Source: Chakrabartia sp. (GTDB taxonomy: Bacteria > Pseudomonadota > Alphaproteobacteria > Sphingomonadales > Sphingomonadaceae). From it: a stretch of 64,000 bases of DNA. Shown here one piece after another: positions 5,693 through 49,130 of this stretch; the stretch's first letter is position 1, and each line of letters begins with the position of its first letter. The notes under the pieces were generated by a model. The model was not told the DNA's origin, made no database searches, and was given only the letters and a program-made list of their open reading frames with translations. The translations under genes were made by a program, and so were the position numbers. The stretch is from the NCBI GenBank assembly GCA_040398625.1, contig JBBATS010000001.1, forward strand, positions 47,212 through 111,211, in the 5' to 3' direction.

Positions 5693-6409
5693 TTAGCGAC
5701 CTGTTGCCTTCAACTGCGCTTCGAAAACCTTCGTGCAACCGATGCGGGCGAGGCGGAGCAGACGGAGCAGCGCTTCCTCGTCATAGGTTTCGCCTTCCGC
5801 CGTGGCCTGTGCCTCAGCAATGTTGCCGTTCGACAGCAGCACGAAGTTCGCGTCGGCACCTGCATTCGAATCTTCGATGTAATCGAGGTCGAGCACGGGT
5901 GTACCGTTATAAATGCCGCAGCTGATCGCAGCGACCTGCTGTTCGATCGGGTCGGTCTGAAGGAGACCATCCGCCATCAGCTTGTCGACCGCGAGACGCA
6001 GGGCGACCCATGCGCCCGAGATGGACGCGGTGCGCGTGCCACCATCGGCCTGAATGACGTCGCAATCGAGCGTGATCTGGCGTTCGCCCAGTGCCTTCAT
6101 GTTGACGACGGCGCGCAGCGACCGACCGATGAGGCGCTGAATTTCCTGCGTGCGGCCAGACTGCTTGCCCTTGGCGGCTTCACGGCTGCTGCGCGTGTGC
6201 GTCGCGCGGGGCAGCATGCCATATTCCGCTGTTACCCAGCCTTCACCCTTGCCGCGCAAGAAGGGGGGAACCCGTTCTTCGATGCTGGCGGTGACGAGAA
6301 CGCGCGTTTCGCCAAAGCTGACGAGCACGGAGCCTTCGGCATGCTTGGTGAAATGGGGTTCAATGGTGATTTCACGCATCTGATCTGGGGCGCGGCCTGA
6401 TGGGCGCAT
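5693..6409 (-). CDS. rph: Ribonuclease PH
   Basis: [53 protein letters not shown]; start at ATG 6409. Confidence 0.97.
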
Positions 6410-8323: not shown

Positions 8324-8451
8324 CCTCCCCAATGACTTGCATTGGGGAGGGGGACCATCCGTAGGATGGTGGAGGGGCCAATAAGCTCGAAATTGCCCCT
8401 CCGTCAGTCGCTCACGCGACTGCCACCTCCCCATCGCAAGTCGATGGGGAG
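8324..8451. repeat. Composite of two inverted REP-like palindromic units, family B (CTCCCC hairpin type)
   Basis: Unit 1 at 8324-8377 (CCTCCCCAATG-CATTGGGGAGG and ACCATCC-GGATGGT hairpins); unit 2 at 8396-8451 in opposite orientation. Lies between convergent grpE and MaoC genes. Confidence 0.8.
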
Positions 8452-9000: not shown

Positions 9001-10101
9001 TTAGACGTTGAACCGGAAGAGCATGATGTCGCCATCCTTGACGAGATAGTCCTTGCCTTCGGAACGCCACTTGCCCGCTTCCTTGGCACCAGCCTCCCCA
9101 TTGTGGTCGACATAGTCCTGATAAGCCATGGTTTCCGCGCGGATGAATCCCTTTTCAAAATCGGTGTGGATGGCACCTGCGGCATTTGGCGCAGTGGCGC
9201 CCTTGAAAACGGTCCAGGCGCGCGCTTCCTTGGGGCCGACCGTGAAGAAGGTGATGAGGTGCAGCAATTCATATCCTGCACGAATGACGCGGGCGAGCCC
9301 GGTTTCCGTCAGGCCAAGGTCGGAGAGGAATTCTGCGCGATCCTCAACGGGCATCGTGACAATATCGGCTTCGATGGCCGCGGAGACAACCACAGCTTCG
9401 GCACCTTCGGCCTTGGCTTTTTCGAAGACCTTGGCGGACAGGTCATTGCCGGTGGCGGCTGATCCTTCATCCACGTTGCAGACATAGAGGACAGGCTTGG
9501 ATGTCAGAAGCTGTGCCTGTTGGAACGCCTTTTCCTCTTCCGCATCGTTGCGGACCGTCAAACGCGCCGGTTTGCCTTCGCGCAGCAGATCGAGCGCCTT
9601 GCCGAGCACGACGGCAGCGACCTTCGATTCCTTGTCGCCTTGAGCGGCTTTCTTTTGCAGGTTGGGCACCCGCTTTTCGAGGCTTTCAAGGTCGGCGAGC
9701 ATCAGCTCGGTCTCAACGGTATCGGCGTCTGAGATCGGGTCGATCTTGTTGTCGACATGCTGAATATCGTCATCGACAAAGCAGCGCAGCACATGGACGA
9801 CGGCATCGACTTCGCGGATGTTGGCGAGGAACTGGTTGCCCAGACCTTCGCCCTTGGATGCGCCGCGCACGAGGCCGGCGATGTCGACGAAGCTCAACTG
9901 GGTTTCGATGATCTTCTGGCTGCCACCAATTTTGGCAATCGCCTGCAAGCGCGGGTCCGGCACGGCGACGTTCCCGACGTTTGGCTCAATCGTGCAGAAC
10001 GGATAATTGGCAGCCTGTGCCGCCTGCGTTTCCGTCAGTGCGTTGAACAGGGTGGACTTCCCAACATTGGGCAGGCCGACGATACCGCATTTGAAACCCA
10101 T
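9001..10101 (-). CDS. ychF: Redox-regulated ATPase YchF
   Basis: [61 protein letters not shown]. Confidence 0.98.
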
Positions 10102-10685: not shown

Positions 10686-10780
10686 CTCCCCTCCCGCTTG
10701 CGGGAGGGGCTGGGGGAGGGCGTGTGCACACTCCCCAGAACAGACCCTCCCCTGACCCCTCCCGCAAGCGGGAGGGGAAG
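10686..10780. repeat. CIR/REP-like element, family C (CCCCTCCCGCTTGCGGGAGGGG terminal hairpins)
   Basis: Two inverted ~35-bp arms with a variable centre; a near-identical element lies at 34609-34709. Confidence 0.88.
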
Positions 10781-13504: not shown

Positions 13505-14407
13505 ATGGCGGCGGACAATCAAAGCTTGAGCTTTCAGGACCTGATCCTGACCCTTCACGATTATTGGGGAAAGCAGGGATGTGTCATCCTGCAACCCTAT
13601 GACATGCGCGTGGGCGCGGGGACCTTTCACCCTGCGACGACGCTGCGTGCGCTTGGCCCGGAAAGCTGGAATGCCGCTTATGTGCAGCCCTCCCGCCGTC
13701 CGACCGACGGGCGTTATGGGGAGAACCCCAACCGGCTGCAGCATTATTACCAATATCAGGTGATCATGAAGCCGAGCCCGGCGAACCTGCAGGAGCTCTA
13801 TCTGGGCTCGCTCGACGCCATCGGTATCGATCCGCTCAAGCACGACGTCCGCTTTGTGGAGGATGACTGGGAAAGCCCGACGCTGGGCGCCTGGGGCCTT
13901 GGCTGGGAAGTCTGGTGTGACGGGATGGAAGTCACCCAATTCACCTATTTCCAGCAGGTTGGCGGCTATGATTGCAAGCCCGTCGCAGGCGAGTTGACCT
14001 ATGGGTTGGAACGTCTGGCCATGTACATTCAAGGCGTCGACCGCGTGTACGACCTGCGCTTCAACAACCACGGCGTCAGCTATGGCGACGTCTTCCTTGA
14101 GAATGAACGCCAGTTTTCGAAGTACAACTTCGAGGTCGCAGACACCGCCGCGTTGTTCGTCGGATTTGCGAAGGCCGAGGCCGAGTGCCAGCGTTGCATC
14201 GAAGCGGGTGTGCCGCTTGCTGCCTATGATCAGGCGATTGAGGCGAGCCACTTGTTCAACCTGTTGCAGGCACGCGGCGTCATCTCCGTGCAGGAACGCG
14301 CCAGCTATATGGGCCGCGTCCGCGATCTGGCGAAGGGCAGCTGTCAGGCTTGGATCGAAAAGCAGACGCCCGAATGGACTGAGAAATTCCCGGGGTGGAC
14401 GGCATGA
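13505..14407 (+). CDS. glyQ: Glycine-tRNA ligase alpha subunit
   Basis: [56 protein letters not shown]; start at ATG 13505. Confidence 0.98.
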
Positions 14408-16566
14408 CCGACTTCCTCCTCGAACTCCTCTCCGAAGAAATCCCGGCGCGCATGCAGGACAAGGCGCGGGATGATCTTGCGCGCCTGTTCTCAGCGGAAC
14501 TTGATAAGGCGGGCCTGAAGGCTGCCGACCTCATCACCTATGCGACCCCGCGCCGTTTGGCGTTGATTGCCAAGGGCTTGCCGCTGGAAACGCAGGCGGT
14601 TTCCGAAGAAACCAAGGGGCCAAAGGTCGGCGCGCCGCCACAGGCGATGGAAGGTTTCCTCCGAAAGGCCGGCCTCACGCAGGACCAGTTGGTTGAGCGC
14701 GACGGCGTCTATTTCGCGGTTGTTGAAAAGCCGGGCCGCAAAACGGCGGACGTGCTGGCAGAGGCCATCCCCACGATCATCCGCGCCTTCCCATGGCCCA
14801 AATCACAGCGCTGGGGCGCCGCCTCCCGCTCGACCGAGAGCTTGCGCTGGGTGCGTCCGTTGCAGGGCATCATCGCGCTATTGGGCGACGATGTTGTCCC
14901 TTGCGAGATTGACGGCATCACCAGCGCCGCCGCGACGATGGGCCACCGCTTCCATCATTCCGGCCCCGTCACCATCAGCAATGCGGATGATTATGCCGCA
15001 AAGCTGAAGGCGGCGCACGTCATCGTCGATCAGGACGAACGCCGCGCGATCATCCGTGCGGGTGCCGAAAAGGCGGCGGCGGATGCGGGCCTTGTGCTCG
15101 TGCCCGACGAAGGCTTGGTCAATGAGAATAGCGGCCTGACCGAATGGCCCGTGCCGATGCTCGGCCGCTTTGATCCCGATTATCTGACTGTGCCCGAAGA
15201 AGTCATCCAGCTCACCGCGCGCGTGAACCAGAAATACTTCATCTGCCGTGATGCGGCAGGCAAGCTCGCCAATGCGTTCATCTGCACAGCAAACATCGTC
15301 GCCAATGATGGTGGCGCTGTGATCGTTGCGGGCAATGAGAAGGTGCTGGCCGCGCGGTTGAGCGATGCGCGCTTCTTCTACGACACCGATTTGAAAACCA
15401 GCCTTGAGGTGCATGCCGAAAAGCTGAAGGACATCGTCTTCCACGAAAAGCTGGGGACTGTGGCCGATAAGGTCGAGCGCGTGGCGAAGTTGGCGCGCTG
15501 GTTGGTTGAGAATGATATCGTCACCCCAGCGCAGGCTGGGGTCTCCGGTGCCGAGATGCCAGCCTCCGCTGGCATGACGAAGGAGCGGCTGGCCGACATG
15601 GCCGAACGCGCCGCGCGTCTGGCGAAGGCCGATCTTGTCACCGGCATGGTCGGGGAGTTCCCTGAACTTCAGGGGCTTATGGGCGGATATTATGCCGCCG
15701 CCCAAGGTGAACCCGTCGAAGTCGCCGCCGCCGTGCGCGACCACTACAAGCCGGTCGGGCAGGGCGATGACGTGCCGACCGCGCCGGTGACGGTGGCGGT
15801 GAGCTTGGCGGATAAGCTGGATACGCTTGTGTCGTTTTTCTTTGCTGACATGCCGCCCACCGGATCGAAGGATCCTTTCGCGCTCCGGCGTGCCGCACTT
15901 AGCGTCCTCGAATTGTTGACGAGGAACAACCTGCGTTTCAGCCTTTGGGAGACAATCACGAACGCCCTAGCAGGGCTGACGAAGCAGCGCTGTTGGGACA
16001 GCATGCAGGACAGCGAATACGAAGCCCATCAAGCTGGATTGAAGCGCGCGTTTGCGACGCTGCCGGACTTCTTCGCCGACCGCCTCAAGGTCCAGCAGAA
16101 GGGAGCCGGCGTCCGCCACGACCTGATCGACGCGGTGTTTGCCCTCGGCGGTGAGGACGACCTCGTCCGCCTGTTGGCCCGCGTGAAGGCGCTTCAGGCC
16201 TTCGTCACAACAGAGGACGGCACTAACCTTCTCGCCGGATACAAGCGCGCCGCGAATATCCTGAAAAAAGAAGGCGTTGAGAACCTTACGGCGAAGTCAC
16301 TTTCCTATGCGCCCGCTCCGGAGGAAACGGCGCTCATCAACGCGCTTGATTCGGCAGAGCCGCAGGCCGCTGCCGCGATCGCGCGGGAGGATTTTGAAGG
16401 GGCCATGGCGGCGCTTGCGTTGCTGCGCGCGCCGATTGATGCGTTTTTTGACAAGGTGATCGTGAATGATCCGGACGAAGAGAAGCGACTGGCACGATTG
16501 GCCATGCTCGCGCGCGTCCGCGATGCCGTTCATCAGGTGGCCGACTTCTCCCGTATTGAGGGATGA
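14404..16566 (+). CDS. glyS: Glycine-tRNA ligase beta subunit
   Basis: [57 protein letters not shown]; ATGA overlap with glyQ. Confidence 0.97.
15519..15579 (+). repeat. REP-like palindromic element (family D, GTCACCCC...ATGACG type) in frame within glyS
   Basis: CGTCA terminal repeat with hairpins CCCCAGC/GCTGGGG, GTCTC/GAGAT and ATGCCAGC/GCTGGCAT; translates as [20 protein letters not shown]. Confidence 0.85.
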
Positions 16567-34608: not shown

Positions 34609-34709
34609 TTCCCCTCCCGCTTGCGGGAGGGGTTAGGGGAGGGCGCGGGCCGACTCTTTCCTTTTCAATCAGGCCCTCCCCCAGCCCCTCCCGCAAGCGG
34701 GAGGGGAGA
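34609..34709. repeat. CIR/REP-like element, family C
   Basis: CCCCTCCCGCTTGCGGGAGGGG...CCCCTCCCGCAAGCGGGAGGGG, matching 10686-10780; between gcvH and gcvPA. Confidence 0.88.
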
Positions 34710-49049: not shown

Positions 49050-49073
49050 AAACCTCCCACCACTCGTTTGCCC
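49050..49073 (+). repeat. Left direct repeat of the WYL cassette
   Basis: AAACCTCCCACCACTC-GTTTGCCC versus AAACTTCCCACCACTCCGTTTGGCC at 51411. Confidence 0.7.
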
Positions 49074-49130
49074 TGCGCCTGTCGAAGGGCTGTCCTTTCT
49101 TTTCCACTCAGGTGAACAGGAAGAGCGGTT
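49065..49130. repeat. Truncated REP-like element, family E (left arm only)
   Basis: CGTTTGCCCTGCGCCTGTCGAAGGGCTGTCCTTTC. The expected complementary right arm (TTCGACA..CTCAG..CGAACG) is absent after GGAAGAGCGGT. Confidence 0.6.

Follow-up and report, generated by a model that had tools for sequence, protein, structure and literature searches.

How did a long palindrome come to lie, in frame, within an essential gene that remains intact? The question is raised by positions 15519–15579 of a 64-kb stretch of Chakrabartia sp. DNA (64,000 nt, hereafter the window), a 61-nt segment inside glyS, the gene for the beta subunit of glycine--tRNA ligase (GlyRS-beta; GlyS denotes the protein of the window and its orthologs). 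We conclude that this segment is very probably one copy of a palindromic repeat that is dispersed in Sphingomonadales and presumably mobile, namely a dimer of the CGTC-1 type of repetitive extragenic palindromic (REP) sequences, which inserted in frame into glyS.

A palindromic element read in frame within glyS

The product of the host gene matched TIGR00211 over its full length (729 bits) as well as PF02092 and PF05746 in profile searches, and Escherichia coli GlyRS-beta (7yse_C) with an E value of 2e-106. Its open reading frame (ORF) opens at GTG 14395 and overlaps the end of glyQ at 14407, with no repeat at the junction of the two genes in the window. Both the ORF list and the ortholog alignment showed that the frame stays intact despite the 61-nt element, which is read through. 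The features concerned are as follows.

14404–16566, plus strand: glyS, glycine--tRNA ligase beta subunit, 720 aa from ATG 14404 (MTDF start); ORF list, profiles and structure matches.
15519–15579, plus strand: CGTC-1-type REP dimer, complete, its two stem-loop units inverted and their CGTC tags outward; sequence, inverted repeats and copies in relatives.
15519–15545, plus strand: left REP unit, made of CGTC 15519–15522, stem ACCCCAGC 15523–15530, loop GCAG 15531–15534, stem GCTGGGGT 15535–15542 and tail CTC 15543–15545; inverted repeat, with a layout that fits CGTC-1 (PMC3733652).
15546–15552, plus strand: 7-nt spacer CGGTGCC joining both units; comparison of copies.
15553–15579, minus strand: right REP unit, inverted, reading CGTC-ATGCCAGC-GGAG-GCTGGCAT-CTC on the minus strand; inverted repeat. 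Viewed on the plus strand: tail GAG 15553–15555, stems 15556–15563 and 15568–15575, loop CTCC 15564–15567, and GACG 15576–15579.

The element, CGTCACCCCAGCGCAGGCTGGGGTCTCCGGTGCCGAGATGCCAGCCTCCGCTGGCATGACG, thus has the plus-strand layout CGTC-ACCCCAGC-GCAG-GCTGGGGT-CTC-CGGTGCC-GAG-ATGCCAGC-CTCC-GCTGGCAT-GACG and encodes residues V373–T392 of GlyS (numbered from the MTDF start). An inverted-repeat search described it as an imperfect inverted repeat with 28-nt arms (15518–15545 and 15553–15580, 82% complementary) and found within it two hairpins (15523–15542 and 15556–15575), each an 8-bp stem free of mismatches that closes on a 4-nt loop. The window contains the motif CCAGCNNNNGCTGG 3 times, where 0.18 occurrences would be expected. 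Folded as RNA, the element had a minimum free energy (MFE) of −40.7 kcal/mol, compared with −23.6 ± 3.3 for shuffled versions (z −5.2), none of 200 shuffles being as good; with DNA parameters, z was −4.7. The first-pass annotation had described a palindromic multi-hairpin with CGTCA...TGACG ends at this place, and the sequence, the inverted repeats and the folding statistics all confirm it. The fold that it had drawn, an outer stem with three hairpins, can form as a four-way junction at −35.1 kcal/mol, but the MFE structure is a single long hairpin with 23 of 27 possible pairs; two separate hairpins reach −30.3 kcal/mol.

The loop is empty in many orthologs

We compared 117 Sphingomonadaceae GlyS sequences (666–829 aa, 66–91% BLASTP identity to the window protein). 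The flanks of the loop were nearly invariant, the upstream one reading ...LARWLVEEGIV, and 50 of the 117 proteins carried a short, empty loop, ...EEGIVKGAS-ADDAERAARL. Among these were P0007 (82% identity to the window GlyS) and P0013 (80%); the latter is encoded at locus L008, whose gene neighbourhood is the same as that of the window. The loop of E. coli GlyRS-beta (7yse_C) is also short, leaving a gap in the alignment at the position of the element. The clean gap among orthologs that the first-pass annotation had proposed to look for was therefore there, in syntenic relatives as well.

At the nucleotide level, the empty site of L008 reads ATCGTGAAGGGCGCGAGCCCCGAC. The empty ATC GTG AAG corresponds to ATC GT[C ACC ... 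ATG AC]G AAG in the window, a net gain of 57 nt. The addition had previously been put at about 20 residues: the element does encode the 20 residues V373–T392, but the net gain relative to an empty ortholog is 19 codons, because a Val codon is already present at the empty site. The insert was found in the independent assemblies L001, L002, P0002 and P0004. In addition, four independent public runs contained 98–100% of the sampled words; the isolate sequencing runs X1 and X2 contained 100% of those of the 1.2-kb glyS stretch around the element.

Copies of the element elsewhere

The element was present in glyS of L001 (98% nt identity) and of L002 (95% by blastn, 93% in the codon alignment). In L002, whose GlyS is 81% identical to that of the window, it was also found in two spacers, glyQ–glyS (9922–9986) and pth–rplY (6205–6267), and one of these spacer copies showed a compensated A-T to G-C change in a stem. 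A wider search was made in GTDB species-representative genomes with the pattern GGGGTCTCN{5,30}GATGCCAGC; it is a sample, not a census. The matches, at least 120 stretches, included many chance ones in unrelated phyla, and full elements were re-identified with a stricter regular expression. This yielded at least about 40 distinct full copies in at least 34 loci, belonging, among the matches listed, to Sphingomonas, Sphingobium, Novosphingobium, Novosphingopyxis, Porphyrobacter, Chakrabartia and other genera. In nearly all copies listed, CGTCACCCCAGCG-nnn-GCTGGGGTCTC is followed by a centre that varies and then by GAGATGCCAGC-nnnn-GCTGGCATGACG. The asymmetry between a left CCCC and a right TGCC was kept in nearly all of them, as were the C before GTCA and the G after TGAC. 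With its 7-nt spacer, the window element is the shortest full copy in the sample (61 nt, compared with 63–86 nt elsewhere, where centres are longer). Most copies lay outside any Pfam-recognisable gene. Long stop-to-stop ORFs running across elements were considered as evidence of coding and set aside: they were mostly devoid of Pfam hits, that is, spurious ORFs of high-GC DNA, only glyS, ileS and uvrA being real.

In the X1 and X2 runs, a second copy was found on one other contig of each, and a third on a third contig of X1, flanked by an apparent gene start with an AGGAAA ribosome-binding site. This makes at least 3 copies in X1/X2, glyS included, by a search that detects near-identical arms only. 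The spacers of L002, the other Sphingomonadales and the X1/X2 contigs thus bear out the intergenic copies that the first-pass annotation had anticipated.

As for the family, Di Nocera, De Gregorio and Rocco (2013, BMC Genomics 14:522, PMC3733652) described CGTC REPs as a CGTC tag followed by an 8-9-bp stem with a 4-5-nt loop and a 3-nt tail. They occur mostly as dimers, mainly in Alphaproteobacteria and in some cases within genes, and no transposase is associated with them; CGTC-1 is the type with an 8-bp stem and a 4-nt loop. The window element carries the tag at 15519–15522 and its complement GACG at 15576–15579, the 8-bp stems of both units are perfect and enclose the loops GCAG and CTCC, and both units have a 3-nt tail, though CTC rather than the consensus CCA. 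Both units begin their stem with an A-T pair; the second pair is T-A on the right and C-G on the left. In CGTC-1, both positions are A-T "almost invariably" (PMC3733652). Dispersal is also that of the family, with mostly intergenic dimers in other genomes and two further copies in X1/X2. Judged by these defining sequence features, the element fits the CGTC-1 REP family. The same paper bears out two links drawn in the first-pass annotation: the repeat read as VIPAKAGI is a CGTC-tagged REP, and Rickettsia palindromic elements (RPEs) are related, RPE-6 of R. conorii being CGTC-1 and RPE-4 being CGTC-4.

A length-tolerant loop of the HD domain

An AlphaFold2 model of the window GlyS, built on the 117-sequence alignment, had a mean predicted local distance difference test score (pLDDT) of 87.6 and matched solved GlyRS-beta structures with template modelling (TM) scores of 0.73–0.78. 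It placed the insert between helices 353–369 and 393–406 of the HD domain, with pLDDT <50 at residues 378–386. The surface loop inferred in the first-pass annotation could therefore be located on the predicted structure as a low-confidence interhelical loop. It corresponds to the E. coli GlyRS-beta loop AEQIGADVNHA (residues ~376–386). In E. coli, mutation of K364, R367 and K394, around the conserved cavity of the HD domain, lowers aminoacylation, and the loop between the helices that bear these residues is not among the tRNA contacts described (PMC9908026).

These data suggest how the present state may have arisen. A REP dimer would have entered the helix-to-helix loop of the HD domain in frame, by a transposition-like or recombination-mediated event. 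The palindrome is free of stop codons in this frame and encodes residues that are small and flexible (P, A, G, V, S, T), within a loop that tolerates changes in length; for these reasons the enzyme would still work, and the insert would be inherited as a 19-residue, probably disordered, surface loop. The peptide is probably exposed and near-neutral.

Recurrent insertions in GlyS

The loop that holds the element, hereafter site A, contained an insert in 67 of the 117 Sphingomonadaceae orthologs (57%). Every site-A insert examined as DNA was a long nested palindrome, and these belonged to unrelated families, listed here with two further sites of GlyS.

F1 (CGTC-1, three stem variants): CGTC-tagged units, at site A of the window, L001, L002, L003, L009, L007 and L006.
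F2: GCCCTGAGCCTGTCGAAGGGC..., read as RPEPVEG...LRQAQPER, at site A of L004.
F3: CCCCTCCC-nnnn-GGGAGGGG plus GGGGTGGG, read as PLP..GGVGGG...PSRKREG, at site A of L005 and L010.
F4 (protein level only): read as VRVERSRDT...LEANG, at site A of P0016 and P0048.
Site C: after NQKYFICR, window aa ~282–286, nt ~15250; empty in the window.
Site D: after ANILKKEG, window aa ~627, nt ~16285; empty in the window.

Inserts at site A added 8–67 residues and also differed in sequence and reading frame. Within the syntenic clade of the window (80–91% GlyS identity), all four states, F1, F2, F3 and empty, were met. The F3 insert of L010 enters after AAG, 3 nt downstream of the junction in the window; insertion points vary by a few nucleotides, and the events are therefore independent. 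F2 and F3 also had intergenic copies in loci of relatives.

Sites C and D are two more GlyS loops where, in other sphingomonads, palindromic repeats from several families are repeatedly found in frame. Palindromic inserts at these sites were found in L004 (10849–10935), L003 (11945–11997), L009 (7186–7211), L015 (674–749) and L027 (1947–2028); one of the repeats reads RHPELVSGS...WMLKQVQHD, and F3 occupies site C of L004. In Sphingomonas laterariae (L027), F1 dimers were found at both sites A and D and another at the glyQ/glyS junction. In the unselected sample of at least about 40 F1 dimers, 4 lay in frame in glyS, 1 at the glyQ/glyS junction, 1 in ileS and 1 in uvrA. The share of glyS among the dimers listed is far above the ~0.05% of the genome that this gene occupies. 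The ileS dimer is in frame in Sphingobium lactosutens (L028, 1247–1322), and the uvrA dimer in Sphingomonas sp. Root720 (L041, 2172–2250), where it falls between the UvrA_inter and DNA-binding domains.

According to PMC3733652, genes that share a functional category host their REPs at different places, except for recB in two Xanthomonas species; the paper names uvrA of other bacteria among REP host genes and reports no glyS hot spot. Our literature searches found no report of a glyS insertion hot spot either. The repeated colonisation of three GlyS loops by at least four unrelated palindromic families is thus apparently unreported, and constitutes a modest extension of a published case.

Separately, we noticed that the glyQ–glyS junction often hosts a palindromic repeat in relatives (L027 21–97, L002 9922–9986, L003 9889–9978). 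The one in L027 may form a C-terminal extension of GlyQ.

Insertion, targeting or selection

The best-supported explanation is that selfish DNA inserted near-neutrally, the tolerance of the protein loop acting as a filter. That a selfish repeat was the source of a GlyRS-beta loop, as first proposed from the sequence, is supported by the gap in orthologs, by the dispersed copies and by the position of the insert in a low-confidence loop. The hot spot would then mainly reflect the tolerance of the loop rather than targeting.

Three observations weigh against this explanation. First, no second copy of the element was found within the 64-kb window, where blastn-short returned 11-nt chance matches only. 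Second, CGTC REPs are without a known transposase, and no target-site duplication was visible between the filled ATCGT[C...GAC]GAAG and the empty ATCGTGAAG, in a single comparison with L008, which may itself differ from the ancestral site. Third, the element was well conserved. Against L001 it showed 98% nt identity and 95% identity at third codon positions, compared with 75–87% at third positions of the 100-codon flanks; against L002 the values were 93% and 85%, compared with 59–66% in the flanks. In both comparisons it ranked within the top 6–7% of 20-codon glyS windows. Third positions this similar would not be expected of a purely neutral old insert. The excess suggests that the element spread recently by recombination, that it was converted by other copies, or that its structure is under some constraint.

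Another possibility was that the DNA of the loop attracts elements, or that a resident palindrome attracts later ones. The native site ATCGTGAAGGGCGCGAGCCCCGAC has a CGTG beside a GGGC-GCGA-GCCC mini-hairpin that resembles a REP unit. The CGTC tag overlaps native (A/G)TC GTN codons in the window, L009, L006 and L007, so that 4 of the element's 61 nt match the empty site. This 4-nt coincidence with a CGTG-containing site hints at microhomology or target mimicry. Moreover, additional, partial units lie next to the full one in L007 and L002, and the over-representation of glyS in the unselected sample is what targeting would produce. Yet F2 and F3, whose ends are unrelated, enter the same loop at slightly different points, and two other GlyS loops, ileS and uvrA are occupied as well. 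These varied entry points and further hosts fit a protein-tolerance filter better than a single DNA target, and we regard targeted insertion as improbable. We are similarly doubtful of the broader proposal that the HD-domain loop and the two further GlyS loops form a preferred landing or retention site, whether through DNA that mimics a REP or through an advantageous mRNA hairpin or flexible linker.

Selection may instead have kept the insert, so that the repeated occupancy of site A would reflect a benefit. A REP-derived insert could have been exapted as an mRNA hairpin, causing a translational pause between the HD-domain helices or serving as an RNase or stability signal, or as a loop that modulates GlyRS. 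The palindrome is indeed intact, with its 23 of 27 pairs and −40.7 kcal/mol, its 20-codon window is among the best conserved of glyS, and more than half of the orthologs carry some palindrome at site A. Besides, metatranscriptome contigs of relatives extend from glyS into inserts of F3 and F1 (DNA carry-over is possible), and the inserts appear to be retained in RNA. However, close relatives and the whole Sphingorhabdus-like group do well with an empty loop, and the inserts are wholly unlike one another in sequence, length and frame, which tells against the peptide having a specific function. As for the excess of conservation, it is modest (p ~0.06 per comparison), and recent recombination explains it equally well.

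The rest of glyS bears on this last point. Site B, at GlyS aa 518–549 (window ~15955–16050), is hypervariable: it spans 13–107 aa among orthologs, and many of its variants are unrelated to one another. P0002 and P0006 have one site-B allele in common but differ in their state at site A, which indicates that glyS is a mosaic shaped by recombination. The neighbour-joining tree of GlyS was poorly resolved. Recent recombinational spread is therefore as likely a cause of the conservation as selection on the hairpin, and exaptation appears to us unlikely. Incidentally, we considered whether site B was itself derived from repeats and rejected this, since its variants do not read as palindromic repeats.

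Finally, a locally evolved, glyS-specific regulatory palindrome in RNA or DNA, or an assembly artefact, would agree with the single copy in the window, but is refuted by full elements with identical arms and a conserved left/right asymmetry at many unrelated loci and genomes (L002, other Sphingomonadales, the X1/X2 contigs) and by the insert in independent assemblies and public runs, and we attach next to no probability to it.

Other repeats in the window

Further repeats were noticed between genes of the window. Nested palindromes of the F3 family lie at 10688–10777 and 34611–34706, reading CCCCTCCCGCTTGCGGGAGGGG ... CCCCTCCCGCAAGCGGGAGGGG with inner arms GGGGGAGGG / CCCTCCCC. At 8324–8451, a pair of 10-11-bp hairpins, CCTCCCCAATG..CATTGGGGAGG and CTCCCCATCG..CGATGGGGAG, has two smaller hairpins in between and appears to be a different repeat type. 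An F2 half unit, GCCCTGCGCCTGTCGAAGGGCTGTCC, is found in the gap at 49070–49097; full F2 dimers occur at glyS site A of L004 and in spacers of L002, L003, L008 and L010.

glyS as a natural system

Syntenic genomes that are ~80–90% identical in GlyS differ in their state at site A. Sphingomonad glyS thus offers a convenient natural system for asking at what rate repeats are gained and lost, what makes a loop permissive, and whether CGTC REPs still move. If the preferred-site proposal were true, glyS would be an essential gene that naturally reports how mobile REPs are and how selfish DNA gives rise to protein segments, with a turnover visible between closely related syntenic genomes. A practical consequence concerns annotation: GlyS ranges over 666–829 aa among close relatives, and repeat peptides such as VTPAQAGV...PASAGMT should not be taken for functional motifs.

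Comparison with known systems

Miniature inverted-repeat transposable elements are recognised by terminal inverted repeats together with a target-site duplication made by a DDE transposase; the single window/L008 comparison showed no such duplication. REPINs mobilised by RAYT transposases (Bertels and Rainey 2011; Nunvar et al. 2010) are closer, being two inverted REP units that can fold into a long hairpin and lie mostly between genes. They differ in their tag, which is GTAG in REPINs and in RAYT-associated REPs, and in lying on either side of a RAYT gene, whereas the tag of the window element is CGTC, in a family which, according to the literature, has no associated transposase.

RPEs provide another comparison. 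RPE-1 measures roughly 100–150 bp, the window element being much shorter. As in RPEs (Ogata et al. 2000, 2002), a palindromic repeat of the same tag superfamily stands in frame within a conserved protein that stays intact and functional, and adds a peptide at its surface. Rickettsia are obligate intracellular bacteria, whereas the host of the window is a free-living freshwater sphingomonad; the likeness is one of layout.

The closest known system is that of the CGTC-1 REP dimers of PMC3733652, in whose Additional file 3 the following cases appear. In Sphingomonas wittichii Swit_4867, residues 17–49 read VIPAKAGI...IPAFAGMT, and in Erythrobacter litoralis a repeat provides residues 467–488 of the IleRS ELI_13550 (VTPAEAGVSPGHEQIPASAGMT). 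In E. litoralis GlyRS-beta (ELI_05865, 742 aa), residues 398–423 form the CGTC-1 dimer peptide VVPAKAGTSLGQSAKTNEIPASAGMT; the residue numbers suggest that this insert most probably sits in the same GlyS loop. That dimer and the window element share the unpaired CGTC tag, the 8-bp stem, the 4-nt loop, the 3-nt tail, the inverted units and the short spacer, a translation of the form V-x-P-A-x-A-G ... P-A-x-A-G-M-T, glyS as host, an origin in Sphingomonadales and the lack of a linked transposase. Compared with published CGTC-1, the window element has stems CCCCAGC / TGCCAGC, a tail CTC instead of CCA, a C-G instead of an A-T as second pair of the left unit, and a spacer of 7 nt. An in-frame CGTC-1 dimer in glyS is therefore an event already published for a related bacterium, and the insertion itself is ordinary for the family.

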